64,000 nt of DNA from Candidatus Liptonbacteria bacterium (GCA_023244895.1 JAHFLL010000001.1:83630-147629); one strand, 5' to 3'; numbered from the stretch's first letter, positions 3,590-55,196 are shown. The notes: generated from the letters alone by a model not told the origin. Translations and numbers: made by a program.

Positions 3590-3781
3590 ATGAATAAAAT
3601 AACGGGGAGAATAAAGATGTTTCTACTGGAGGCGCGCCAGGAGTTTAAGCACGTAAACTGGCCAACCCGGCAGGAAGCCACTCATTTAACTCTTATAGTC
3701 ATCGGCATCTCTCTGGGAGTTGCAGTGTTTATGGCCTTTTTTGACTACCTCTTTTCCTACGGCTTAAAAGCCATTATTTAA
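3590..3781 (+). CDS. secE: preprotein translocase subunit SecE (true start likely at 3617, MFLLEARQ...)
   Basis: small single-TM protein directly upstream of nusG; conserved secE-nusG-rplK order. Confidence 0.7.
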   Translation: MNKITGRIKMFLLEARQEFKHVNWPTRQEATHLTLIVIGISLGVAVFMAFFDYLFSYGLKAII

Positions 3782-7915: not shown

Positions 7916-9159
7916 TGAGCCCAGAAACTCCACCCCTCCCAGACGATCCGCCCAAGGACGCCTCTATCCCCAGGCGAACCTCTAGGGAAAATCCGAAACA
8001 AGAAGAAATCGGGTTGGAACATCTAGCGGTGGGTCCAGGTCAAGAAGATTCTGCCAGGCAGTTGGAAGTTATTTCCGGTTTTCGTTTTCGGGATGAGCGA
8101 GACAGGCAACAATTCACGTCTTTTATGGAGTCGCTGGCTCAGGCCCTAGAGACGTATTTATCGCACAACAATGCGGAGCCGTTGGCCGGGATAGACGACA
8201 CTATTTTGCGCGCAGTTTTGCTGGCAGAACCAAACGAACCGGCTCAAAGGCAGAAAATTTCGATTGAAGAAGCATTCGTAAGAATCCAAAAAAATATTAC
8301 CGAATATCTAATAAGTCATCCCCGTCAGATTCAAATCAGTTCTGGAGTTATCTCAGACCAATTAATTCTGCGGATTAAGGGCATGGAATCTATGGTCAAT
8401 TTTTTACATTTGCGCTCCGCCGAGCCTCTACCCGAAGATTGTCGCCGTACTTTTTACACCCAAACCAGGCTGGATGCCAGATTCAGCGTTGACGTAATAG
8501 AAGTGATTGAGCAAAACCAAGGTGGTCAATTAGAGATTCCGGAACTGAATCTTATTCAGGTCAAATCATCCGAACCCACAGATAGGGGCGTGAGCGATAT
8601 CCAGAAGGACCATGACATAGTTTGGCGAGAACTTTGGGGAGATGTGGAAAACGCTAATCAGGCAGTCGCGGAGGCATTCAGGTTAAGTCCAGACCAACTG
8701 GGCAAAAGGGTGGAGGGGCTACTTTGGATCTGCGCCGAGCTTCAGGCCGGGGGCAGTCCCAAAAATTTCCTTGACTCATTGACCGCTGAAATAATAAATT
8801 CGGCCGAACAGTATGGTGTAAACCCAGACTATCTAAGGCAGGCTAGCCCAGCCTTGCGCGCCAAAAGAATCACTCCCATATTGAGGATGTTTTTGAAATC
8901 CTTGGGGGAGAGATTTGATAAAGCATTTGTAGTATTAGATCAGATGTCCAAGAAACCAGAGGGCGTTCCCCCGCAGCAACCGTTTTTTGTGCGCAATCCG
9001 GCAGTAGCAAGAATTAAGGATGTGAATTCTTTGGTTGTTGTTGGAGAGCGGAGCGGTTCGTATCACATAGCGGCGAAGGAAGTCATTACTTCTGGCCAGT
9101 CCGGTAAGGCGTTAGTTTTGCGGTCGCGTCGGATTGACCCGGGAAATAAAAAGAGGTAA
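7915..9159 (+). CDS. hypothetical soluble protein (414 aa), translationally coupled to gatB
   Basis: start overlaps the gatB stop (TAATG); backbone-like GC; no TM segment and no motif I can assign. Confidence 0.5.
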   Translation: MSPETPPLPDDPPKDASIPRRTSRENPKQEEIGLEHLAVGPGQEDSARQLEVISGFRFRDERDRQQFTSFMESLAQALETYLSHNNAEPLAGIDDTILRAVLLAEPNEPAQRQKISIEEAFVRIQKNITEYLISHPRQIQISSGVISDQLILRIKGMESMVNFLHLRSAEPLPEDCRRTFYTQTRLDARFSVDVIEVIEQNQGGQLEIPELNLIQVKSSEPTDRGVSDIQKDHDIVWRELWGDVENANQAVAEAFRLSPDQLGKRVEGLLWICAELQAGGSPKNFLDSLTAEIINSAEQYGVNPDYLRQASPALRAKRITPILRMFLKSLGERFDKAFVVLDQMSKKPEGVPPQQPFFVRNPAVARIKDVNSLVVVGERSGSYHIAAKEVITSGQSGKALVLRSRRIDPGNKKR

Positions 9160-9171
9160 AAAATAGAAAGC

Positions 9172-9453
9172 ATGAGCAAGGAGCATGCACCCATGGGGAA
9201 CAACCCGATCGACGTCTTGCTGCGTGAGCACGGCCTCGAACCGTTGCCTGGCGCTGGCAGAGAGGGGCTGTACGTGGCTCCGTTTGACGAGCACGCGTGG
9301 GAAGTCGCCACGGCGACATTCAAGAACGCCATCGGTAATGCGTCGGATCAGGCGGCCATCGCCGAGCTGATGGAACAGGCGATTCGGCTGTACGTGGAGC
9401 TCGTCGGACAGAACACGCGAGCGCCCGCCGAGGAGCCAAGACGATGCGCGTAG
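9172..9453 (+). CDS. hypothetical high-GC protein (93 aa)
   Basis: first ORF of a high-GC island; followed by a strong hairpin terminator; start codon uncertain. Confidence 0.35.
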   Translation: MSKEHAPMGNNPIDVLLREHGLEPLPGAGREGLYVAPFDEHAWEVATATFKNAIGNASDQAAIAELMEQAIRLYVELVGQNTRAPAEEPRRCA

Positions 9454-9461
9454 GCGCGTAA

Positions 9462-9503
9462 GTGGCCGCACCCTCCCGGGATGCGGCCACGATATTTAAT
9501 AAT
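9462..9503 (+). terminator. intrinsic terminator GTGGCCGCA(11-nt loop)TGCGGCCAC plus T-rich tail
   Basis: perfect 9-bp GC stem followed by GATATTTAATAAT. Confidence 0.55.
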
Positions 9504-9525
9504 CAATTAGGTTGGTATAGATTTT

Positions 9526-9566
9526 ATGCAAAAAGTTACCCCCGGCGCACAGCGTGGCGCCAGGGG
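9526..9566 (-). terminator. intrinsic terminator for the PhoH-like gene (minus-strand CCCCTGGCGCC...GGCGCCGGGGG then TTTTTG)
   Basis: GC hairpin followed on the minus strand by TAACTTTTTGCAT. Confidence 0.6.
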
Positions 9567-9601
9567 TAGGGGACTTATGGACTCTCTCGTAGCGAGGACG
9601 G

Positions 9602-11062
9602 CTAGAGCAGTTTCGCCGCCAGCTCCGCGATCTTGGAGCGAACGACATCGTGCATCGCTAGGTGAGCGAAACAGGGCTGGCCCTTGAATCGTTCCACGAC
9701 CTGCACTAGCCCGTTTGAGAGCGAGTTGATCTCGCTACGGTCAATCTGGTCGGGGTCGCCCGTGAGGATCACGCGCGAGCCCTCGCCCGCCCGCGTGAGC
9801 ACGAGCTTCATGTCCTCTTGAGTGAGGTTCTGCCCGTCGTCCACAATGATGACGGCTTCGTGGATGGAGCGACCGCGCAGATAGTTAATCGGCGCGATAT
9901 CAAGGGCGTGCGTTTGGAGCAGACTCTCGACAGTCGGATGTGTCGATACCGCTTCTCCTCTGGTCGGTTGATGTTCGCCGACCGAGTTGGTGAAGCGTGT
10001 CGGACCATGCAGTCGGCGCATGATGAAGTCGAGGTTGTCGATGATGGGCCTGGCCCAAGGGGCCATCTTGTCTCCCAGATCTCCCGGGAGAAAGCCCAGT
10101 TCACGGCCCGCCTCGGCGTTGAGGCGGTAGACTTCGATACGCGAAACCTTGTGGCTCCGGAGCATCTTGTAGGCCGACAGGAGCGCAATGAGCGTCTTCC
10201 CCGTGCCGGCGATGCCGCTCAGGCTGGTGATTAGGGTATGATCGTCCATGATCAGGTCGTGCGCACAGAACTGTTCTGCGTTACACGGTCCGAAGCGTTC
10301 TTCCAGCTTGGTGTTGACGCGACGCAAGTAGCCTGGGGTTTCGTGACTCTTGTAGATTCCCCACGCACTCTTGCCCGTGCCGGCGACACAGATCTCACAG
10401 CACTGGTTGGCCATGATCTTACTCACATCTGTGTAGTCGGCCAGGGCACTCACCGGGAGCCGTTGCTCGTGGTGCAGAGTGTTCAGCAACGCTGCCTCGC
10501 CCTCTGGCACCTCAATGCGCAGGCGTCCCGAATAGAATTTCTCGGGAGCCTCCACGGCCCGGTCGCTCCGATAGTCTTCGGCCACGACGCCACGCGCGCG
10601 AGCCTTCATCCGCATCGCGGCATCGCGGGTGACGAGGATGACCCGTTCGTCCGGATGCGCGACCTGGTAGTTGTCAGCCAACATGATAATCGCATCATCG
10701 GCGTAGTCTCGGTTGAATCCGGGCCACGCGCGAGACAGGTCCAGCCTGCCCGCGTCGAATCGCAGCAGTCCTCCGTTCAGAGGGATTCCGTGCTGTAGTT
10801 CGTCGAGAGAGGCCCGCGTCTGAATGTCGTCCAAGAACCTGACCACGTTGCGGGCAGTGTACCCGACACCGTTTGCGGCAGCACGCCGCCGATCAAGTTC
10901 TTGGAGTACGGGGAACGGTATGACAACGACGTTCCCGTTGACCAGGGATTGCACGATTTCGGGCACGGCCACCAGCACGCTGGTGTCCGTAACGTAGGTC
11001 TTCTTCCCTACGTTTCCCGCTTCGCCGCTTAGCATGGATTGCTCCTTCGGGTTTGCCAACAC
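9602..11062 (-). CDS. PIN domain / PhoH-like ATPase fusion (YlaK-like)
   Basis: N-terminal PIN-like region (YVTDTSVLV...VVIPFPVLQELD) and C-terminal PhoH P-loop (LSGIAGTGKTLIAL); strong SD GAAGGAGCAATCC-ATG; GC3-rich codons unlike the backbone. Confidence 0.8.
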   Translation of the reverse strand: MLANPKEQSMLSGEAGNVGKKTYVTDTSVLVAVPEIVQSLVNGNVVVIPFPVLQELDRRRAAANGVGYTARNVVRFLDDIQTRASLDELQHGIPLNGGLLRFDAGRLDLSRAWPGFNRDYADDAIIMLADNYQVAHPDERVILVTRDAAMRMKARARGVVAEDYRSDRAVEAPEKFYSGRLRIEVPEGEAALLNTLHHEQRLPVSALADYTDVSKIMANQCCEICVAGTGKSAWGIYKSHETPGYLRRVNTKLEERFGPCNAEQFCAHDLIMDDHTLITSLSGIAGTGKTLIALLSAYKMLRSHKVSRIEVYRLNAEAGRELGFLPGDLGDKMAPWARPIIDNLDFIMRRLHGPTRFTNSVGEHQPTRGEAVSTHPTVESLLQTHALDIAPINYLRGRSIHEAVIIVDDGQNLTQEDMKLVLTRAGEGSRVILTGDPDQIDRSEINSLSNGLVQVVERFKGQPCFAHLAMHDVVRSKIAELAAKLL

Positions 11063-11142
11063 TTAAGTTGGGAGGTCCGAGTGCTCGCCTAATACTCCTT
11101 TCCGAGGCTGTCATTTGGTTGGAATGTAAAGGCCTCTGCCCC

Positions 11143-12189: not shown

Positions 12190-12218
12190 TTGACTAATTA
12201 TACAAAATGTGATAAAAT
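12190..12218 (+). promoter_or_regulatory. near-consensus sigma70 promoter TTGACT-17-TGaTAAAAT (extended -10)
   Basis: seen directly; the -35 abuts the miaA start codon on the opposite strand. Confidence 0.5.
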
Positions 12219-12288
12219 ACGCAATAGCGTCGGTGAGCTGGGGCATAGGGCTCCGGCAATAGTCCGAGGCGGTATATCGGAGTGCGTC

Positions 12289-12684
12289 ATGACTGATGCT
12301 ATCGTGTTTGTGATCACGGCGTTCATGGTCGGCGGAGAGGTCTTCATGGCGGCATGGGGGATTTTCTCCTGGACATGCGTTGTGGCGTGGCTCGCTGTGA
12401 TGCTCTATCTCACCTGGGACATCTGGGGCGCCCGGGTCGTAGAGCTCCAGCGGGATCTCGTGGCCGAGTTGGAGGAAGGCACGCCGCCCGACTTCAGCTC
12501 GCAACGAGTACTCCCGCCAAGTAGGTGGGACATCGTCCATTTCGCTGGCGTGGACGAGCAGGGGCAGGCGAAGTTCGACTACCCCCTCCTTTCCGCGTTT
12601 GCCGCCTGGCTCCGCCACCACATTGTGATTGGCGGTGGTCGCTGGCGGTACGGCGACACGTTCCCGCCGGACGGCAGCCGGTAG
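12289..12684 (+). CDS. small membrane protein (about 131 aa, 2 predicted TM segments), high GC
   Basis: GGAG 8 nt upstream of the ATG; hydrophobic N-terminus (VFVITAFMVGG...WLAVMLYLTW); GC3-rich. Confidence 0.4.
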   Translation: MTDAIVFVITAFMVGGEVFMAAWGIFSWTCVVAWLAVMLYLTWDIWGARVVELQRDLVAELEEGTPPDFSSQRVLPPSRWDIVHFAGVDEQGQAKFDYPLLSAFAAWLRHHIVIGGGRWRYGDTFPPDGSR

Positions 12685-12746
12685 CCCCACTGAGACGGGG
12701 CAATAGTGACTGGGGTCCAACGTGGACCCCTTTCGCATTTTTATAT

Positions 12747-12775
12747 TTGACTAAAGTGGAAAGCGGGCATAGTTT
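12747..12775 (+). promoter_or_regulatory. candidate promoter TTGACTAAAGTGG...(-10 weak, TAGTTT)
   Basis: shares the TTGACTAA -35 box with the promoters at 12190 and 13853, and AAAGTGG with the one at 34703. Confidence 0.3.
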
Positions 12776-12798
12776 TTAAATCAGGAAAGGAGACGGCG

Positions 12799-12906
12799 AT
12801 GTTTCAAGCAGGCAACTCCTCGGACCCATGGGTCGTATTCGCGTTTGTGGTAATGGCGATTTTGGCCTGGGTTGTTCGCCGAATTGATCGGCGGAAAGGA
12901 GGATAG
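12799..12906 (+). CDS. 35-aa single-TM peptide (MFQAGNSSDPWVVFAFVVMAILAWVVRRIDRRKGG)
   Basis: AGGAAAGGAGAC SD 5 nt upstream; codons checked by hand. Confidence 0.4.
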   Translation: MFQAGNSSDPWVVFAFVVMAILAWVVRRIDRRKGG

Positions 12907-12907
12907 A

Positions 12908-13099
12908 ATGCAGCCGCCCACAGAGTTCAGGTTGGAAAACGTTCTGGCGGCTACGGGCCTCTTCGTTGCCTGGCTGGTCGGCAATCTCATAGCCGACTGT
13001 CGGGCGAGACGGAGAAGGACGAATGTGCCGAAACGTGGAAGCGGGCACGCTCCGCACGAACACTGCGAACACGAATGCGAGGAAAAGCGTGAAAGCTAG
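12908..13099 (+). CDS. 63-aa membrane peptide with His/Cys/Glu-rich tail (HAPHEHCEHECEE)
   Basis: AGGAGG SD; start lies 1 nt after the previous stop; a TM helix followed by a possible metal-binding tail. Confidence 0.4.
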   Translation: MQPPTEFRLENVLAATGLFVAWLVGNLIADCRARRRRTNVPKRGSGHAPHEHCEHECEEKRES

Positions 13100-13102
13100 G
13101 GG

Positions 13103-13145
13103 GCGAGTCGGAGAGCCGACTCGCCCTTACACATTTAATAATTTG
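13103..13145 (+). terminator. intrinsic terminator GGCGAGTCGG agag CCGACTCGCC plus T-rich tail
   Basis: perfect 10-bp stem 4 nt after the stop. Confidence 0.6.
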
Positions 13146-13170
13146 ACAAAGATTCGGAATAGTATTTGGA
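13144..13170 (+). promoter_or_regulatory. candidate promoter with TTGACA -35 inside the motif ATTTGACAAAGA (also present at 16636)
   Basis: -10 is ambiguous (TAGTAT or TATTTG with a short spacer). Confidence 0.3.
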
Positions 13171-13246
13171 TAGGGATAGCTTACTGCTCCGACGCTTTCG
13201 TGGGCCTTGGGGCAAATCTAGTGGGCGGAAGGGAGGGATCTCCGTG

Positions 13247-13378
13247 ATGTTGGCAGTCGCACTCTCGAGCGTCCCGATGTGGGCATGGCCAGTCATCGCC
13301 ATCGTGGCCGTCGTGGCTGCCGCTGTGGTTGCGCGGTTTTTCAGCGGCAGGAACTCGTCCACGAACCACGTCGCGTGA
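13247..13378 (+). CDS. 43-aa hydrophobic peptide (MLAVALSSVPMWAWPVIAIVAVVAAAVVARFF...)
   Basis: GGGAGGG SD; GTG-ATG start; one TM segment. Confidence 0.4.
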   Translation: MLAVALSSVPMWAWPVIAIVAVVAAAVVARFFSGRNSSTNHVA

Positions 13379-13387
13379 CACAGCAAG

Positions 13388-13440
13388 GGGGGCCGGAGGA
13401 AGCGTGCGTATGCACGCTCGCCAATGGCCCCCCGATCAAT
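13388..13440 (+). terminator. nested GC hairpins (GGGGGGCC...GGCCCCCC enclosing GCGTGC gtat GCACGC)
   Basis: lies downstream of the 43-aa ORF; followed by an AT-rich stretch. Confidence 0.4.
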
Positions 13441-13527
13441 TTCAATAATCGGATTGACGGATAGTCTTTTTTATACTTTCATATAGCGAGCGCACAATCA
13501 TCGCCACCTCGCCTCAAGGAGGTCGGA

Positions 13528-13815
13528 ATGGGTTTGATCTTGGTATATGCGATCGCACTGTATGCGATCATCGCCTTCGTGCACGGAGCACAAGGTGGAA
13601 ATCGGGAAGATGTGAACGAAGAATCCGCACGTCCGCCGCTCTGGTGGATAGCGATCCACACTCTCGGAAGCTGGCTGGCTCTCCAGCCAAAGCTCTTCCC
13701 GGAGCGTTGGTGCGAATTCGTGTGTCGGTTCAAGATGTTGCGCGGGTCTCTGTGTCGGCGAATGACGGAGGTCGTCCGTCGTGGCTGGCACCTGATTGGT
13801 GCGAACATAGAATGA
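13528..13815 (+). CDS. 95-aa membrane protein with Cys-rich C-terminus (WCEFVCRF...SLCRR)
   Basis: AAGGAGG SD 6 nt upstream; two hydrophobic segments. Confidence 0.45.
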   Translation: MGLILVYAIALYAIIAFVHGAQGGNREDVNEESARPPLWWIAIHTLGSWLALQPKLFPERWCEFVCRFKMLRGSLCRRMTEVVRRGWHLIGANIE

Positions 13816-13852
13816 AGGGGCTTCCGGCACGCGTCGGCGGTCCCTTTCTGTT

Positions 13853-13881
13853 TTGACTAATCAGCCATTTTGTTTTTATAT
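13853..13881 (+). promoter_or_regulatory. sigma70-like promoter TTGACT-17-TTATAT
   Basis: TTTTGACTAA -35 context shared with 12190 and 12747. Confidence 0.45.
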
Positions 13882-13896
13882 ATAGTCAGCACGTAT

Positions 13897-13917
13897 CTTC
13901 CGGTGTGCTACGCACCG
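13897..13917 (+). promoter_or_regulatory. 5'-UTR hairpin TCCGGTG tgctacg CACCGGA
   Basis: perfect 7-bp inverted repeat between the promoter and the SD of the 178-aa ORF. Confidence 0.35.
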
Positions 13918-13939
13918 GAGTTGCCGTTTTGGAGGACAC

Positions 13940-14476
13940 ATGACCGGCGAAGTTCTAGTAGCAGTTCTGCTGGGCGTAATCATGGGGGTCGCAATTCTGG
14001 GCTCAATGGACCGTGCCACCTGGCGGCGAGTCTGGGACGAGATCTTCGCCGACGCCTGGTGCGTCCAGGCCACGAAGAACACCTACGAGTCCGTTGTGGG
14101 TGCGATTCTGTGGCTCGGGGTCATGGTGGCGGGTCTCGCTATTCAAGCGGCGGGGTCGGTGCGGGCATGGTGGCGAGAGAAAGTATTTGTGCCACCGCGC
14201 GTTGCCATCAAAACGTTCGCGGACGCGACGGGTCGCGAAGGCGAGAACACTATGGTGTTCATCTCCGAGGTGGGCATCCTGGTCTGGCGGCTGTTGCTTT
14301 GGCTCGCGATAGCAGCTGTCGCGAGCGTTTTCCGCCAGCTCCTCGCTGAGCGGGCAGAGACAAAACGGGTTTTCGCCACATTTGCCGACTCCATAGAGGC
14401 GGACGACCACTTCTGTGCGACGACCCTAACCAATCGGCAGGATGCCGCTTGCGAAGCCGTGAGGTCAGTCAAGTAG
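13940..14476 (+). CDS. 178-aa polytopic membrane protein (about 4 predicted TM segments)
   Basis: GGAGG SD; alternating hydrophobic helices; high GC. Confidence 0.5.
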   Translation: MTGEVLVAVLLGVIMGVAILGSMDRATWRRVWDEIFADAWCVQATKNTYESVVGAILWLGVMVAGLAIQAAGSVRAWWREKVFVPPRVAIKTFADATGREGENTMVFISEVGILVWRLLLWLAIAAVASVFRQLLAERAETKRVFATFADSIEADDHFCATTLTNRQDAACEAVRSVK

Positions 14477-14484
14477 ACCAGTCT

Positions 14485-14520
14485 GGGGCTCCGCGTATGT
14501 CGGAGCCCCTTACGCTTTTC
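14485..14520 (+). terminator. intrinsic terminator GGGGCTCCG cgtatgt CGGAGCCCC plus T-rich tail
   Basis: perfect 9-bp stem ending the high-GC island. Confidence 0.6.
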
Positions 14521-14627
14521 ACTCATCTTTATAGAATCAATAGGGGTATCTCACGAGATGGGACTAAACAGTAACTCCTATTATTTTTAGAACTAAAACA
14601 TAGCGTCATGGTGGGTCCCGCCCGGCC

Positions 14628-28698: not shown

Positions 28699-28746
28699 TA
28701 AAAACTAAAATGCAAACGGCTCACCGGGACTAATTCCGGCGAGCCG
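28699..28746 (-). terminator. intrinsic terminator for the 114-aa gene (CGGCTCGCCGG aattagt CCGGTGAGCCG then TTTGCATTTT on the minus strand)
   Basis: 11-bp GC stem followed by a T-run. Confidence 0.55.
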
Positions 28747-28780
28747 TGCAGTTCGGGTCCGAGGCTGGCTTGTCGCTAGC

Positions 28781-29125
28781 CTAGGACATGATGGCGTGAA
28801 GCAGGGCGAGGCAGGGCCCGCCCACGCTTCCGAGGAAGAAGCCGATCGCGATGACTATCGCGTAGACCTCCAGCGCGGAAGTGCGTGGCTTGCGCCGCTT
28901 GAGCTTCCCGGCCAGATTGGCGAGGAGGCAGAGCAATGGCATCACCAAGATCCAGGTCAATGCGCGCCCCGTGGCCTGGTCTTGCGGACTGGCGCTTGGC
29001 CAGCCTGAGGACATGAGCCACCAGCCGCCCCAGATCGCCGCCAGCAGGGCGAGGATCGTCGTGAGGACGACGGCCCACTCCCATTTGCCGCAATCGATTC
29101 CGTTCGCCGCCGTGACGCTTGTCAT
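28781..29125 (-). CDS. 114-aa high-GC membrane protein (Trp-rich, about 3 predicted TM segments)
   Basis: GGAGGAG SD 4 nt upstream of the ATG; upstream TTGCCA-16-TATTTT promoter. Confidence 0.5.
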   Translation of the reverse strand: MTSVTAANGIDCGKWEWAVVLTTILALLAAIWGGWWLMSSGWPSASPQDQATGRALTWILVMPLLCLLANLAGKLKRRKPRTSALEVYAIVIAIGFFLGSVGGPCLALLHAIMS

Positions 29126-29156
29126 GCGCTCCTCCAGTCTGTTGGGACCTAGCGCT

Positions 29157-29185
29157 AAAATATCACAACCAGAAAAGTTGGCAAA
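29157..29185 (-). promoter_or_regulatory. candidate promoter TTGCCA-16/17-TATTTT for the 114-aa gene
   Basis: minus-strand TTGCCAACTTTTCTGGTTGTGATATTTTAGCG. Confidence 0.4.
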
Positions 29186-29196
29186 TATGGAAACCC

Positions 29197-33412: not shown

Positions 33413-34711
33413 ATGAAGAAGAAAAATAAAAAGAAGACCAAGCCGGTTAGAAAGATAAGAAAGGTATTAAAAAAGAAGAAATCTGCGAAAAAAGTTATTA
33501 AGAAAACGAAGAAGGCGGTTAAGAAAGTTGCCAAAAAAATAAAGAAGGCGAAGAAGGTCAAGAAGGTTGCTCACAAGAAGAAGCCGCTAAAAAAGTCCGG
33601 CAAGAAGGGGGAGAAAAAGGGTAAGGGTAAAATAGACACGGCGGCTCTAGAAGAGCTGATTGAGCGCGGCCGTCCGCGCGGATTTGTGACCGACAACGAA
33701 ATCCTTTATTTCTTTCCCGATATAGAAAAGGACGTTTCATTTTTGGACGAGGTCTATGATCGCCTAGAGAAAGCAAATATAAAAGTAATTGAGACAGAGG
33801 GTTTAATAAAAGTGGAGGAGAAGGATGAGCCGACCGAATCCGAATTGGCGGATTTGGCGAGTCTGGAGCGTGGCACTCCGGACGCGGTGCAGGTGTATTT
33901 GAAGGAAATCGGCAAGACGCCTCTCTTAACCAAACAAGAAGAGAGAGACTTGGCCAAGCGCTCGGATGCCGGCGACGAGGAGGCGAGACAAAAGTTAATG
34001 AAAGCCAACCTGCGCCTAGTGGTTTCTATCGCCAAGCGCTACGCCAACCGCACCCCCAACCTTTCTATTTTAGACCTAATCCAGGAGGGTAATATTGGTT
34101 TATCCCGCGCGGTGGAAAAATTTGACTATCGCAAGGGATTTAAGTTCTCAACCTACGCAACCTGGTGGATTCGCCAGGCGATTACGCGCGCCCTAGCGGA
34201 CCAGTCTCGCACTATTCGTATTCCGGTCCACATGGTAGAGACTATCTCTAAGTACGCGCAGGCCAGGCGTCAGATGATACAGGAGCTGGGCAGAGAGCCA
34301 CTGCCGGAAGAAATTGCCGCGGAAATGGGTCTGGACGTAGACAAGGTTTTGCATATCCAAAAAATTTCCCAAGAAGTTTTATCAATTGAGGCGCCGGTAG
34401 GAGATGAGGAGGATTCCACTCTATCCGACTTCATTCCGGACGAGAAGACAACCACTCCTTCTCAGCTCGCGGCACACGCTCTTTTGCGCGACTTACTCAA
34501 AGAAATAATGATAGATCTGACCGAGCGCGAGCAGAACATTTTGAAAATGCGTTTCGGCTTAGAGGATGGCGTGAGCCACACCCTAGAAGAGGTGGGTAAG
34601 GTTTCCGGTGTTACTCGCGAGCGTATCAGACAGATAGAAGCTAAGGCACTAGAGAAGATCCGCGACCATCACAAAGCTAAGGCGTTGGAAGGTTTTGATA
34701 GCTTGACTTAA
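33413..34711 (+). CDS. rpoD: RNA polymerase sigma factor RpoD (Lys-rich N-terminal tail)
   Basis: sigma70 regions 2-4 ([14 protein letters not shown], helix-turn-helix in region 4.2). Confidence 0.9.
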
Positions 34712-34731
34712 TTATAATTTGATTATATAAA
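34703..34731 (+). promoter_or_regulatory. sigma70-like promoter TTGACT-17-TATAAA whose -35 overlaps the rpoD stop codon
   Basis: TTGACTTAATTATA... parallels TTGACTAATTATA at 12190, and AAAGTGG parallels 12755. Confidence 0.45.
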
Positions 34732-34798
34732 GTGGTCAGAAATCGGGGCCGTGTGGTCTCGAGTCTTTGAATCTGCCACCCCAATCTTAGGAGGAGCC

Positions 34799-35431
34799 GT
34801 GGAGCCGAAATTCCGCTACGCCGAAGTTGGTCTGTACGGCGGGAAAAACTGGCAAAGAGTCATATCTCTGTGCCGCCTCTTCGTGCAGCCGCTCTTCAGC
34901 TGCGCGATCGTTATCATCTTATGGCACATCATGATTTGGACGAAGCAGTACTACCCGCCCGCAATCGTGTCCATGGTGGAAAACACTCACCTGCAGTGGG
35001 TTGGCGCGATACACGGTGCGCTTGCAGTCTTCTTGTTGGTTTTCCAGAGTTCGGAAAATTGGAGCAAGATGATCGATGCCTTCGAGCTGGGCGAGGACGA
35101 CGAGTTCGTGAGGCTCATCCACAAGCAGGCCAATCCTCCGCCGGTGAAGTACGTCCTGCGAGTTACCGGGGCAGCGACCAACCTGCTCTCAATCAGCTTT
35201 CCAGTCTCCAATTACAACTGGAACCTGATACTGGTCTTCATCGTGGCCTTCATCGTGGCCATCCTGTGGGAGATGCTGATGGAGATGGAAAACCCCACAG
35301 ACGGAATCTGGGCCATCCTCAACATTCCTTTGAGGCTGGCGGAGAGAGTCAGGGATCTCAATCTCCCGAAGCGGCGGATGGATCGCTTCTGGGAGTGGCT
35401 GGCCAACCGCGTCGCGCCAGCCAAGAGCTAG
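34799..35431 (+). CDS. high-GC polytopic membrane protein (about 210 aa from a GTG start)
   Basis: AGGAGGAG SD then GTG; several hydrophobic helices; GC-rich. Confidence 0.45.
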   Translation: MEPKFRYAEVGLYGGKNWQRVISLCRLFVQPLFSCAIVIILWHIMIWTKQYYPPAIVSMVENTHLQWVGAIHGALAVFLLVFQSSENWSKMIDAFELGEDDEFVRLIHKQANPPPVKYVLRVTGAATNLLSISFPVSNYNWNLILVFIVAFIVAILWEMLMEMENPTDGIWAILNIPLRLAERVRDLNLPKRRMDRFWEWLANRVAPAKS

Positions 35432-35455
35432 AGCGTGGAGAGCAATGCAAGCATC

Positions 35456-35494
35456 GCGCCCGGGTGAAGTTCCCCGGGCGCAGCTGTTTATTTG
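35456..35494 (+). terminator. intrinsic terminator GCGCCCGGG tgaagttcc CCGGGCGC then AGCTGTTTATTTG
   Basis: perfect 8/9-bp stem followed by a T-rich tail. Confidence 0.55.
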
Positions 35495-37399
35495 AATATC
35501 TGGCGGTTTTTCCATAAGATAGAGAGCATGATGACGGTAAACGAGATTAGGCAGAAATATCTGGAATTTTTTAAGAGTAAGGGACACAGGGTAATCCCTT
35601 CCGCGTCCTTGGTGCCGGAGAATGACCCCACCACTCTTTTTACGAGCTCCGGAATGCAACCGCTAATCCCTTATCTTTTGGGCCAAGAGTATCCTTTAGG
35701 CAAACGTCTTGCGAACTCCCAAAAGAGTTTTAGGGCGGAAGACATAGAGGAAGTTGGAGATAATCGCCACACCACCTTCTTTGAAATGCTGGGCAACTGG
35801 TCCCTGGGTGATTATTGGAAGGAAGAGCAGCTGCCCTGGTTTTTTGAATTTGTAACAGATGTCCTAAAAATTGACCCGCAAAGATTATATGTATCAGTTT
35901 GGAGTGGTGCGGAGGGAGTTCCTAAAGATGAGGACTCTATCGCCATTTGGCAGAAGCTTTTTGGCGAGAAGGGAATAAAAGATGCCAAGTATGCCGAGAT
36001 GGTAACCGAAGAAGCTGCCTCCGAGCGGGGCATGCAACCGGGCGAACGGATTTTTGGATATCAGAAAAAAAACTGGTGGAGCCGTTCTGGCGCCCCGGAC
36101 AAGATGCCCGTGGGTGAACCGGGCGGACCGGATTCGGAGATGTTCTACGATTTTGATCCGAGTGGAGCGATGCATAAGCCGGAGTTCGGTAAGTATTGCC
36201 ATCCCAACTGTGATTGCGGGCGGTTTATTGAGATTGGTAACTCCGTATTTATGGAGTATCGCAAAAAAGAAGATGGTAGTTTTGAAAAATTGCCCCAGCG
36301 CAACGTGGATTTCGGGGGAGGCTTAGAAAGAATGGCGATGGTTCTAACCGGAACGCCAGATATTTTTGGAATAGATGTGTTTGCTAATATTAGCCGCTCC
36401 CTAGTAAAGTCTGGCGTTATATCAGGGAGTGTAGATATCCGTAGGCTGAGGGTGGTGCTAGATCATGCGCGCGCGGCTATATTTTTAGCCAACGACGGAG
36501 TGGTGCAGTCTAATAAGGGTCAAGGGTACGTGTTGCGAAGACTCGTGCGTCGAGCCGTAATGTTCGCGAAGCTACTTGATCTTAATGCTCCCTGGTTCGG
36601 CGTTGTTTTGGATTCTCTAACTGAAAGTTATCCCGAGCTTAAACAAAATAAAGTCTTTATAGAAACCACTCTAAGAGAAGAAATAGATAAATTTAGCGAT
36701 CTCATTGGAAGCGGAGCAGAAGAAATCCAAAAGACTTTTTCTAAGGGAATAACCGCAATAGATGCATTCAATCTTCATCAGACATATGGTTTCCCTTGGG
36801 AGCTTACCAAGGAGCTAGCCAAGGAGAGAGGGGTGTATATAGACGAGGATGAGGTTCAAGAGGAGTTCAAAAAGCATCAGGAGCTTTCCCGAACCGCTTC
36901 CGCTGGGGTTTTTAAAGGAGGACTCGCGGATAGTTCCGAAAAAGTGGTCAGACTACACACGGCAACGCACTTAATGAACGCAGCTTTGCGCAAGGTGCTG
37001 GGTGAGAGCGTCTGGCAGAAGGGTTCCAATATTACAGAAGAGCGTACCCGTTTTGATTTTACTCATGGCGAGAAAATGACTGAGGAGCAAAAGAAAGAAG
37101 TGGAAAAGATTGTAAATGACGTCATTGCGCGTGACTACGAAGTCAAAAAAGAAATTATGCCATTAGAAGAGGCGCGTAAGTTAAACGCCATCGGAGTGTT
37201 CGGCGAGAAGTATCCGGATACGGTGAGCGTTTATACGGTTTGGGACCCGAAAACCCAAGAGGTTTTTAGCCGGGAATTTTGCGGCGGTCCGCATGTGACC
37301 CATACGGGAGAAATTGGTAAGTTTAGAATTATTAAAGAAGAGGCGGTGGCGGCTGGAATTCGCAGAATTAAGGCGGGGGTGGGGGATGTAAATAACTAA
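35492..37399 (+). CDS. alaS: alanyl-tRNA synthetase, short form (start probably MMTVNEI at 35528)
   Basis: class II catalytic core (FTSSGMQP) and editing-domain HxxxH (HTATHLMNAALR); lacks the C-terminal C-Ala domain. Confidence 0.85.
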   Translation: MNIWRFFHKIESMMTVNEIRQKYLEFFKSKGHRVIPSASLVPENDPTTLFTSSGMQPLIPYLLGQEYPLGKRLANSQKSFRAEDIEEVGDNRHTTFFEMLGNWSLGDYWKEEQLPWFFEFVTDVLKIDPQRLYVSVWSGAEGVPKDEDSIAIWQKLFGEKGIKDAKYAEMVTEEAASERGMQPGERIFGYQKKNWWSRSGAPDKMPVGEPGGPDSEMFYDFDPSGAMHKPEFGKYCHPNCDCGRFIEIGNSVFMEYRKKEDGSFEKLPQRNVDFGGGLERMAMVLTGTPDIFGIDVFANISRSLVKSGVISGSVDIRRLRVVLDHARAAIFLANDGVVQSNKGQGYVLRRLVRRAVMFAKLLDLNAPWFGVVLDSLTESYPELKQNKVFIETTLREEIDKFSDLIGSGAEEIQKTFSKGITAIDAFNLHQTYGFPWELTKELAKERGVYIDEDEVQEEFKKHQELSRTASAGVFKGGLADSSEKVVRLHTATHLMNAALRKVLGESVWQKGSNITEERTRFDFTHGEKMTEEQKKEVEKIVNDVIARDYEVKKEIMPLEEARKLNAIGVFGEKYPDTVSVYTVWDPKTQEVFSREFCGGPHVTHTGEIGKFRIIKEEAVAAGIRRIKAGVGDVNN

Positions 37400-42190: not shown

Positions 42191-42340
42191 GGCCAAGGAG
42201 CGGAAGCCCAGAGATTGACAAATGGGCCATGTTTTGCTTATAATTTTCCCGCTAGTTGATATGAGAGGTTTACCTCCTGGCTTTTTATTTTATGTTAAAT
42301 CTACGGTCATATCGATGGGCGGAAAGCTTTGTCTTAAGAT

Positions 42341-54216: not shown

Positions 54217-54245
54217 TTGCAAAGTTAAAAATCTTTTGATATTAT
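54217..54245 (+). promoter_or_regulatory. sigma70 promoter TTGCAA-17-TATTAT
   Basis: canonical spacing; AT-rich context upstream of the high-GC 271-aa ORF. Confidence 0.5.
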
Positions 54246-54285
54246 ATAGCCCGCACAACATAAACCAATCACCACTCACAATAAT

Positions 54286-55101
54286 ATGCATCCAGGAGAA
54301 CACGGCGTGGAGAACAAAGACAGCAAACGCAGGATGACCCAGGAAGAGGCAGAACTTTTCGCGCGGGACGCGCGATACACGACTCCGGAATCGTTCCGTT
54401 ACAGCTGTTGCGTGGATGGACGGGAAGAAGGCGCAGATGCTTCGCGGGCAGTGCCTGGCGCAGACGCGGGCTACTTCATGTCTGCTCTTGCCGCTCTCCG
54501 GGAATCCGGAGTAGAGGTCACCCCTGAGGTGCGTCGCGCGGTTTTCGGTGCAGTGATTGACTCGGTCGGCGGCCCAAAGAACATCCGTTTCCACACCGAC
54601 CTTCACGCCTTGGAAAAGGCGAAGGAAAAGGGAGTTGTTGCGGGAGTGGCTGCTGGCTGTGGTCATCTCAATTTGGCTCGGCAGAACCCCGGAGTTTACG
54701 GCGTCACCGCGGAAGATATGTCCGCGATCGACGAGGAGCTCCTAAGGCTGCTCGGCGAGGACGCTGATCAGAAGACCCTCCCCGGCAATCACGGCGAGGA
54801 AGCAGTGATGGTGGTGGACGATGTTTCTGTCGGGTTACGCCACCAGGCCGCCGGCAGTCAGGCCTTCGTGTACCACAAGGGTTCGAGCGATGCCTTTTTA
54901 GACCAGCTGGCGGGAGCGGTCTTGGCGAAGCTACCGAACCATCAGCCCGGTCTCACCGAAGAAGCTCTGCGCGTTAAACTGGGAGCATCTTTCGATAGGC
55001 AGCTTACCGCCACGGTGAATAGCCTGGCGCCCGGCCTGCCTCAGTACCGGGTGAGCGGGGAAGAGGTTTCCTACTTGGGCGACGTTCCCAAGAAAGAGTA
55101 G
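54286..55101 (+). CDS. high-GC hypothetical soluble protein (271 aa; start may be the GTG at about 54304 after an AGGAGA SD)
   Basis: about 60% GC; Cys motifs CCVDGRE and AAGCGH; no confident family. Confidence 0.45.
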   Translation: MHPGEHGVENKDSKRRMTQEEAELFARDARYTTPESFRYSCCVDGREEGADASRAVPGADAGYFMSALAALRESGVEVTPEVRRAVFGAVIDSVGGPKNIRFHTDLHALEKAKEKGVVAGVAAGCGHLNLARQNPGVYGVTAEDMSAIDEELLRLLGEDADQKTLPGNHGEEAVMVVDDVSVGLRHQAAGSQAFVYHKGSSDAFLDQLAGAVLAKLPNHQPGLTEEALRVKLGASFDRQLTATVNSLAPGLPQYRVSGEEVSYLGDVPKKE

Positions 55102-55196
55102 TAGGCGGTACCTACTAAGAGTTATGAAAACAAGAACGCCCTGCGGTCAACGCGACCCCGGGGCATTCAAGTTTTTATAGGCTAAATATTATTTTT

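Follow-up and report, generated by a model that had tools for sequence, protein, structure and literature searches.

What stands between the housekeeping genes rpoD and alaS in Candidatus Liptonbacteria, and is it a mobile cassette or something else? We studied a stretch of 64,000 nucleotides from this organism (GCA_023244895.1, JAHFLL010000001.1:83630-147629), called the window here; all coordinates refer to the whole stretch and to the plus strand unless another is given. The host is a Liptonbacteria-like Parcubacterium, a tiny groundwater bacterium of the candidate phyla radiation (CPR). The original prediction, made from the sequence alone, described a promoter, a membrane protein gene and a terminator squeezed between rpoD and alaS, and took them to be one of a family of related cassettes. 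We call the gene in question gene A. We believe it is likely that positions 34703-35493 are a lineage-restricted accessory transcription unit inserted into an ancestral dnaG-rpoD-alaS string. No repeated or mobile cassette is involved: the units in the window that resemble it are unrelated genes with the same layout. We treat as established the layout of the signals, their conservation, the coding constraint on gene A, the insertion and the bestrophin-like fold of the model.

An insertion into the dnaG-rpoD-alaS string

Relatives were retrieved by their DnaG, which set the window among Candidatus Liptonbacteria / Paceibacteria and gave 80 loci. Among these, 51 loci from other Parcubacteria hold both rpoD and alaS, and dnaG-rpoD-alaS is collinear across the 51. 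The gap between rpoD and alaS is at most 50 nt in 13 of them and at most 200 nt in 21; it is longer than 700 nt in 16. The closest outgroup with both genes (L007, RpoD 85% identical) has them overlapping by 4 nt, ATGA. A tblastn search found no homolog of gene A in the 80 retrieved loci. Because rpoD and alaS are tight or overlapping in relatives and none of these carries gene A, we conclude that the unit is an insertion. The original prediction had suggested looking for this adjacency without the insert, and the relatives do show it.

The unit is self-contained and tightly packed, and its promoter, gene and terminator all lie where they had been predicted (Table 1). The details need some correction. 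The -35 was said to overlap the rpoD stop codon. A TTGACT does stand at the end of rpoD, which reads ...GAT AGC TTG ACT TAA, but it is formed by the last two sense codons and only abuts the stop (34709-11). The RpoD C-terminus ...EGFDSLT* and the terminal TTGAC(A/T) are ancestral (L047, L018), therefore the -35 is co-opted coding sequence. The terminator was said to overlap the annotated start of alaS. The hairpin and its T-tract are present, but the tract touches only TTG 35492, the start of the longest possible alaS open reading frame (ORF). The start at 35528, which had been called the real one, fits the N-termini of homologs, and 35531, the ATG used in public gene calls, fits equally well. 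The public call is of 622 aa with tRNA-synt_2c and tRNA_SAD domains.

Consensus matches to promoters and terminators are not above chance by themselves. A scan found 13 promoter-like sites (9.9±3.3 in shuffled sequence) and 11 terminator-like sites (11.5 in shuffles). The gene A promoter is not even listed by the consensus scan, because its -10 ends in A. The putative alaS promoter, which agrees with the consensus at 8 of 12 positions, is under the threshold of the scan; its -35 overlaps both the T-tract and the TTG that begins the longest alaS ORF. The terminator hairpin at 35456-81 has a folding energy of -24.9 kcal/mol (z -3.4), with TTTATTT at 35487-93. What raises the signals of the gene A unit above chance is that they are kept in a sister lineage while four-fold degenerate sites in the flanking genes differ at 34-67%.

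This sister lineage is represented by L001, L002, L086 and L091. The gene A protein (P0001) stands unchanged in an 840,672-bp contig and three further public assemblies, and the sister ortholog (P0002, 50% identical) is its sole close homolog among 5.8 billion clustered proteins. P0002 comes from Rifle groundwater metagenomes, where its gene is also directly downstream of dnaG-rpoD. Over 70 nt of promoter and leader, the window and the sister lineage are 80% identical. The sister promoter agrees with ours in its -35, its -10 and the 17-nt distance between them, with only 10 of 17 spacer bases conserved. L001 has GGAGGGAG and GTG at the position of our Shine-Dalgarno sequence and start. The terminator stem and AGCTGTTT are conserved in L001 with a different loop, and there they lie 3' of an extra gene, gene B. 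As a neutral benchmark, the proportion of synonymous differences (pS) in the flanking genes is 0.52-0.77. Regulatory pieces that remain at least 80% identical while four-fold sites differ so much must therefore be constrained. The leader stem-loop has 21 pairs in an RNAalifold comparison of the window and L001, two with compensatory changes and several with one-sided changes, which with two sequences compared is suggestive only. The conserved leader motif occurs once in the window and in none of the viral contigs. Rfam searches of the region at a permissive E-value and of the whole window at the gathering score returned two tRNAs, both distant, and left the leader unmatched.

Taken together, the sequence and the comparison suggest how the locus may work. 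The insertion would have happened before the split from the one known sister lineage, and the unit would have been inherited in place since. A sigma-70-type promoter, with its -35 from the last two rpoD codons and TATAAA 17 nt downstream, would drive the unit. Since no terminator or hairpin lies between rpoD and gene A, read-through transcripts from dnaG-rpoD should cover gene A as well. The leader of about 62 nt, with its conserved stem-loop, may act in mRNA stability or regulation, and a strong Shine-Dalgarno sequence with a GTG start would lead to translation of the 210-aa protein. The GC-rich terminator (35456-93) would probably stop transcription about 35 nt before alaS, which would be re-initiated from its own weak promoter, TTGAAT-17-TAAGAT, in the short spacer. 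The ATG at 35528 is 7 nt past the -10 of this putative promoter and has no Shine-Dalgarno sequence, so the alaS transcript may be leaderless. A 17-nt stretch of the alaS leader resembles alaS codons 10-15 (82% identical), as a degenerate duplicate of them would, but the similarity is marginal (p about 0.02-0.05).

The same slot looks quite different in the sister lineage. Window and sister lineage share the promoter and the alaS leader, but between them lie one gene in the window and four in the sister lineage. Gene B (134 aa) stands between gene A and the shared terminator, and past the terminator comes a second unit of promoter, two genes (118 aa and 274 aa) and terminator. There is also a 160-nt spacer between the rpoD stop and the promoter of the gene A unit, which in L001 has two hairpins, one of 18 bp with T6 after it and then one of 17 bp (z = -9.5). 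A 9-nt direct repeat, GCTTGACTT, brackets this spacer, with one copy at the end of rpoD and one at the promoter. Only one copy is present in the window, and the -35 of L001 and L002 lies in the separate copy about 160 nt downstream of rpoD. We favour somewhat the idea that the overlap of the -35 with rpoD in the window arose by repeat-mediated deletion of the spacer, because in most relatives a terminator hairpin directly follows rpoD. That the sister lineage instead gained a 160-nt insertion with a 9-bp duplication is a serious alternative, a little less probable.

The beginning of alaS has changed too. The 66-nt segment 35488-35553 is 97% identical in L001 and L091, compared with about 80% in the body of alaS. 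In the sister lineage this segment belongs to a relic (L001 8024-8160; L091 about 2490-2610) consisting of the alaS leader and the first 26 coding nucleotides, 97% identical, followed by a 70-nt GC-rich insert (CCCTTCGACAAGCTCCCAGCCTTCGCAGAGCTACGGCGGGCAGGCAGG...) and then by a different alaS start. The independent assembly L091 shows the same arrangement, which rules out an artefact of scaffolding. From these sequences, the 5' end of alaS appears to have been remodelled at the rpoD-alaS hot spot in the sister lineage. The ATG of the relic opens an upstream ORF of 34 codons that ends 5 nt inside alaS.

Other relatives use the junction differently again. Where the gap is occupied, it contains unrelated accessory genes, among them HicA/HicB-like pairs, a protein with an HELGH motif and probable secreted proteins. 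The rpoD-alaS junction is therefore a recurrent site for accessory genes. By our reading of the sequences, HicB/HicA-like toxin-antitoxin pairs lie in the gap of the Paceibacteria L013, L026, L034, L041 and L053, and a six-helix protein with the protease-like HELGH motif in that of L008 and L030. Assemblies of relatives also break here, L006 exactly at the rpoD ...TTGAC and L002 inside the second unit; such breaks are consistent with strain-level structural variation at the junction. We looked at the 3' end of rpoD for raised identity as a footprint of recombination and did not see it. At its other end, RpoD has a lysine-rich N-terminal extension of about 75 aa (33413-33640), which has the strongest AT skew in the window (0.49) and is present in the sister lineage with changes in length.

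Table 1. Features of the rpoD-alaS locus and units of the same layout in the window
Feature	Position	Strand	Basis
rpoD (432 aa), upstream housekeeping gene	33413..34711	+	ORF; the identical public gene call carries Sigma70 r1-r4 Pfam domains
Predicted -35 hexamer TTGACT, rpoD Leu431-Thr432 codons	34703..34708	+	Read from sequence
Predicted -10 hexamer TATAAA, after 17-nt spacer	34726..34731	+	Sequence and spacing kept in sister lineage
Predicted stem-loop in 5' untranslated region; inner stem 34743-50 / 34755-62, outer stem 34734-40 / 34766-73	34734..34773	+	RNAalifold
Shine-Dalgarno sequence AGGAGGAG, 2 nt ahead of GTG start	34789..34796	+	Read from sequence; equivalent in L001
Gene A, 210-aa membrane protein, divergent bestrophin-like fold in the model	34799..35431	+	Homologs, pN/pS, GC3, AlphaFold2
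Predicted intrinsic terminator: 9-bp all-GC stem GCGCCCGGG/CCCGGGCGC, 8-nt loop, then AGCTG TTTATTT	35456..35493	+	
Putative alaS promoter TTGAAT-17-TAAGAT	35492..35520	+	Function proposed from sequence
alaS, downstream housekeeping gene; start ATG 35528, or 35531 as called	35528..37399	+	
Same-layout units, five or six	12190-14530	+	
Same-layout unit	28718-29190	minus	
Same-layout unit	54217-55170	+	
Same-layout unit, gene A	34703-35493	+	

A fast-evolving membrane protein

Gene A is real: it is coding, constrained and fast-evolving. From the GTG at 34799 the frame is open to a TAG at 35429-31, and the GC content by codon position is 0.53/0.36/0.79. The first and second positions match the neighbours; only the third (GC3) is shifted, 0.79 compared with 0.48-0.57 in dnaG, rpoD and alaS. 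This bears on the description of gene A as a high-GC polytopic membrane protein of about 210 aa with a GTG start. The length, the start and the membrane character (3-4 hydrophobic helices) stand, but the high GC is confined to third positions. Against the ortholog P0002, the proportion of nonsynonymous differences (pN) is 0.34, pS is 0.71 and pN/pS is 0.48. The same comparison for housekeeping pairs gives pN of 0.02-0.16 and pN/pS of 0.04-0.27. At the protein level, DnaG and RpoD are 94-96% identical between the two lineages. The amino acids of gene A are evolving about 10-20 times faster than those of its neighbours, and conservation increases toward the C-terminus. We also considered allelic replacement, in which gene A would have diverged deeper than its flanks, and rejected it: the pS of gene A is within the housekeeping range given above.

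The idea that gene A is a spurious ORF in a GC-rich spacer could draw on the lack of a Pfam match above threshold and on there being only one close homolog in the clustered proteins. We regard it as essentially refuted. The sister lineage keeps the reading frame with its start and stop, and pN is below pS, the GC3 periodicity is strong, 37 proteins found by profile carry a conserved motif, and the structure model is a confident one.

What kind of protein is it? These 37 proteins came from a search of 1.84 billion representatives with a profile built on the four close sequences. They are 77-260 aa long, mainly 165-245 aa, and the alignments of most of them cover the bulk of the profile. PF14023 (Bestrophin-like domain) matches 19 of the 29 aligned family members, with a best E-value of 3e-12, and gives 26.3 bits for P0010. 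Their alignment shows the motif L-x-L-x-W-x-V-x-x-E-x-D-D-P-x-x-G-x-W...I-P-x-E-W-L. Gene A carries its conserved core, E-x-[DN]-[DN]-P-x-x-G-x-W, as E162-M-E-N-P166-T-D-G169-I-W171 after the last transmembrane helix, and P166 is the only invariant column across the aligned members. This acidic-Pro-Gly motif is perhaps equivalent to the E-x-P-F-G motif of bestrophins. An AlphaFold2 model on the family alignment has a mean predicted local distance difference test (pLDDT) of 89 and a predicted template modelling score (pTM) of 0.83, and the modelled structure agrees with a bestrophin-type helical membrane fold. Because many of the relatives linked by profile match PF14023 and the model is confident, we regard the product of gene A as a short and divergent membrane protein of bestrophin-like type, a new member of the bestrophin-like superfamily that is carried as a lineage-specific accessory gene. 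Compared with the known bestrophins (PF14023, formerly DUF4239; KpBest, BEST1/2, VCCN1) it is short, 210 aa against about 270-300 aa for the bacterial ones. The nearest homolog that is not an ortholog is 26% identical, and the remote homologs sit in ordinary gene contexts outside the CPR. Literature searches on DUF4239 and on Liptonbacteria genomes brought up nothing about the rpoD-alaS locus.

Several points weigh against our account, and they should be set out together. In Pfam itself gene A gives 14.8 bits against PF14023 (E = 0.022), under the gathering score of 32 and over the C-terminal third of the profile only, and its closest relatives (P0002, P0005-7) do not match the profile. Foldseek of the model against the PDB found nothing significant, and a sequence-profile search of the PDB found no solved relative. 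That gene A most likely forms an oligomer that conducts ions or modulates permeability is pure inference on our part from the behaviour of bestrophin channels. The promoter, the read-through, the leader hairpin and the terminator are predictions backed by one other lineage only. The 160-nt indel can be read in both directions, with deletion only the somewhat likelier one.

Cassette family, phage cargo or old resident?

The most specific claim about this locus was that its promoter is a hybrid of the promoters at 12190 and 12747, so that the unit would be one copy of a related, presumably mobile cassette family. There is something to this idea. Several units in the window do share a promoter, a small ORF with high GC3 and a terminator; TTGACT(T)AATTATA resembles TTGACTAATTATA at 12190, and AAAGTGG is found again at 12753. 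The proposed check was to align the promoters, and the idea was to be given up if they were no more similar than random AT-rich segments. We aligned nine cassette promoters at the -35 hexamer with eight other sigma-70-like sites, which were taken as housekeeping. Outside the hexamer, mean identity is 0.33 within the cassettes, 0.30 between cassettes and housekeeping, and 0.27 within housekeeping, a weak trend that is not significant (p = 0.06 by label permutation). The cassette promoters are slightly more AT-rich as well (0.68 compared with 0.62). The two named parents are 32% and 30% identical to the 34703 promoter, below its best housekeeping match at 39%, and the longest word that it shares, 9 nt, is found in the housekeeping promoter at 42215. 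The window has 15 copies of AAAGTGG, most of them within genes, a number in the range of chance, and its offsets differ between the 34703 and 12747 promoters. TAATTATA occurs 4 times, a count reached by 11 of 100 shuffles. Neither quoted motif is conserved in the sister ortholog promoter, which has TGGATATG and AAATTGG there. Promoter-like sites beyond the high-GC cassettes have TTGACT as their -35 too, at 3741, 47753 and 53126. No significant mutual protein similarity was found among the cassette ORFs tested for paralogy, and no terminal repeats bound the gene A unit. The gene A unit, the array between miaA and thrS, and the 54286 unit are each at the same locus in relatives, which argues for vertical inheritance and not mobility. 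Both the hybrid promoter and the single family are rejected on the very test that was proposed for them, and we consider a mobile family very improbable. What the cassettes share is architecture and high GC3; they form a class of lineage-specific accessory genes by composition and layout and are no repeated mobile element.

A recent arrival from elsewhere deserves more thought. Phage morons, defined on HK97 and HK022, carry a promoter and terminator of their own and a deviant composition, and are inserted between genes that are adjacent in relatives (PMC3594210). A moron, or some other fresh transfer from a GC-rich donor that brought its own signals, would fit much of what we see: the gene A unit has its own predicted promoter and terminator, conserved in the sister lineage, its GC3 stands well above that of its flanks, many relatives have rpoD and alaS side by side or overlapping, and remote homologs occur in bacteria outside the CPR. 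HK97 gp15 is presumably a membrane protein as well. But gene A lies among core chromosomal genes (its neighbours are DnaG, RpoD, AlaS and DUF4230) and there is no prophage around it. PHROGs and PADLOC gave no match for gene A, for the extra genes of the sister lineage or for five other units of the window, and the viral-contig collections held no homolog of gene A. Two lineages with synonymous sites near saturation both have the unit in this place, so it predates a split at which the flanking pS is at least 0.5. Only its GC3 is atypical, not the first and second positions, and its nearest homolog beyond the ortholog is a distant one. The unit is not a moron because the defining requirement, residence in a phage, fails, and fresh transfer of any kind seems to us unlikely. 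At the other extreme, gene A could be an ancient resident that was lost in all other Parcubacteria. About 30 of the 51 relatives have an occupied rpoD-alaS gap, and gene A evolves fast enough for old orthologs to escape tblastn. Nevertheless no ORF in those gaps resembles gene A in length, in motif or by a tblastn match, rpoD and alaS overlap in the closest outgroup that has both, and many independent losses would be needed. We find this as hard to accept as a mobile family.

Other known systems fit the inserted accessory unit only in part. Like the flexible genomic islands, the rpoD-alaS junction holds different accessory genes in different Parcubacteria and tends to break assemblies, but it is a miniature of one to four genes, and the site carries no integrase, tRNA or repeat as a marker. 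Integron cassettes are also short single-gene units with a 3' hairpin, and the units between miaA and thrS are likewise in tandem and in one orientation. The hairpin here is a perfect 9-bp GC stem with a T-tract and has no GTTRRRY core, so it is not an attC, and the gene has its own conserved promoter instead of being a promoterless ORF under a common Pc. The adjacent genes are not recombinases, and no integrase is seen next to the unit; no integrase screen of the whole window was made. Unlike transposons, insertion sequences or miniature inverted-repeat transposable elements, the unit has no terminal inverted repeats and no target-site duplication, and no direct or inverted repeats delimit it (34400-35800). 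The only relevant repeat is the one that brackets the sister spacer, not gene A.

Other high-GC3 units and what the locus means

The cassette ORFs have a GC3 of 0.64-0.86 (0.56 in the small ORF c2a), compared with 0.48-0.60 for most other genes of the window. The units that were tested have one to five homologs worldwide each, 40-61% identical and at the same locus in relatives. The cassette genes are lineage-restricted and fast-evolving. Pfam, run on eight other high-GC ORFs of the window and on gene B, matched only a protein with PIN and PhoH domains. That protein is a PhoH2-like one of 486 aa, encoded on the minus strand at 9115-11064 together with a 93-aa ORF on the plus strand; this region has a GC of 0.60 and a GC3 of 0.75, and its composition matches that of the cassettes.

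Between miaA and thrS (12190-14530) lies a tandem array of units, each a promoter, a small GC3-rich gene for a membrane protein and a terminator. The sister lineage (L088-L090) has the same array, with promoters 87-91% identical. Unit c1 is a diverged ortholog of the sister ORF. Unit c4 keeps its flanking promoter and terminator, yet its coding sequence (13494-13815) is unlike the 118-aa ORF that the sister lineage has in this position; a comparison of the two found no similarity in protein (p = 0.13) or nucleotides (p = 0.49) and tblastx found nothing. Unit c3 has a pS of 0.09 compared with 0.5-0.77 genome-wide, which suggests recent exchange between lineages. On the minus strand, the unit at 28718-29190 consists of the promoter TTGCCA-16-TATTTT, GGAGGAG, a 114-aa membrane protein (GC3 0.86) and a terminator. 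Its place is between convergent genes and upstream of yjbQ; in L001 the unit is missing and a hairpin alone stands at this point. The high-GC unit at 54217-55170, with the promoter TTGCAA-17-TATTAT, encodes a soluble protein of 271 aa without a family match; it has only five homologs worldwide, 40-48% identical, which lie beside tsaD in relatives as it does here.

One could read these units more boldly. The high-GC3 units of this clade may be fixed 'expression slots' whose promoter and terminator frames are kept (TTGACGGATAGTCTTTTTTATACTTTCATATAGCGAGCGC ... GGGGCTTCCGGC is an example of a conserved frame) while small coding sequences, mostly for membrane proteins, are exchanged, replaced or added. 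The turnover would come from recombination between co-occurring lineages, without an integrase. The dissimilar coding sequence in c4, the low pS of c3 and the one gene against four in the rpoD-alaS slot speak for this idea; that c1 is a diverged ortholog and that gene A has diverged and was not swapped speak against it. We think it rather improbable as things stand.

CPR (Patescibacteria) genomes are tiny and mostly syntenic. The few genes in which close lineages differ are the first place to look for roles in host interaction or the cell envelope. The locus described here is a clean, dated example, in which a fast-evolving bestrophin-like gene was put into a probably translationally coupled rpoD-alaS pair. 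The insertion appears to have recruited the last codons of rpoD as its -35 and to have left alaS on its own promoter. Taken alone this is ordinary accessory-gene biology. The wider pattern, in which frames are kept around fast-evolving GC3-rich membrane protein genes, could merit a study across the clade.

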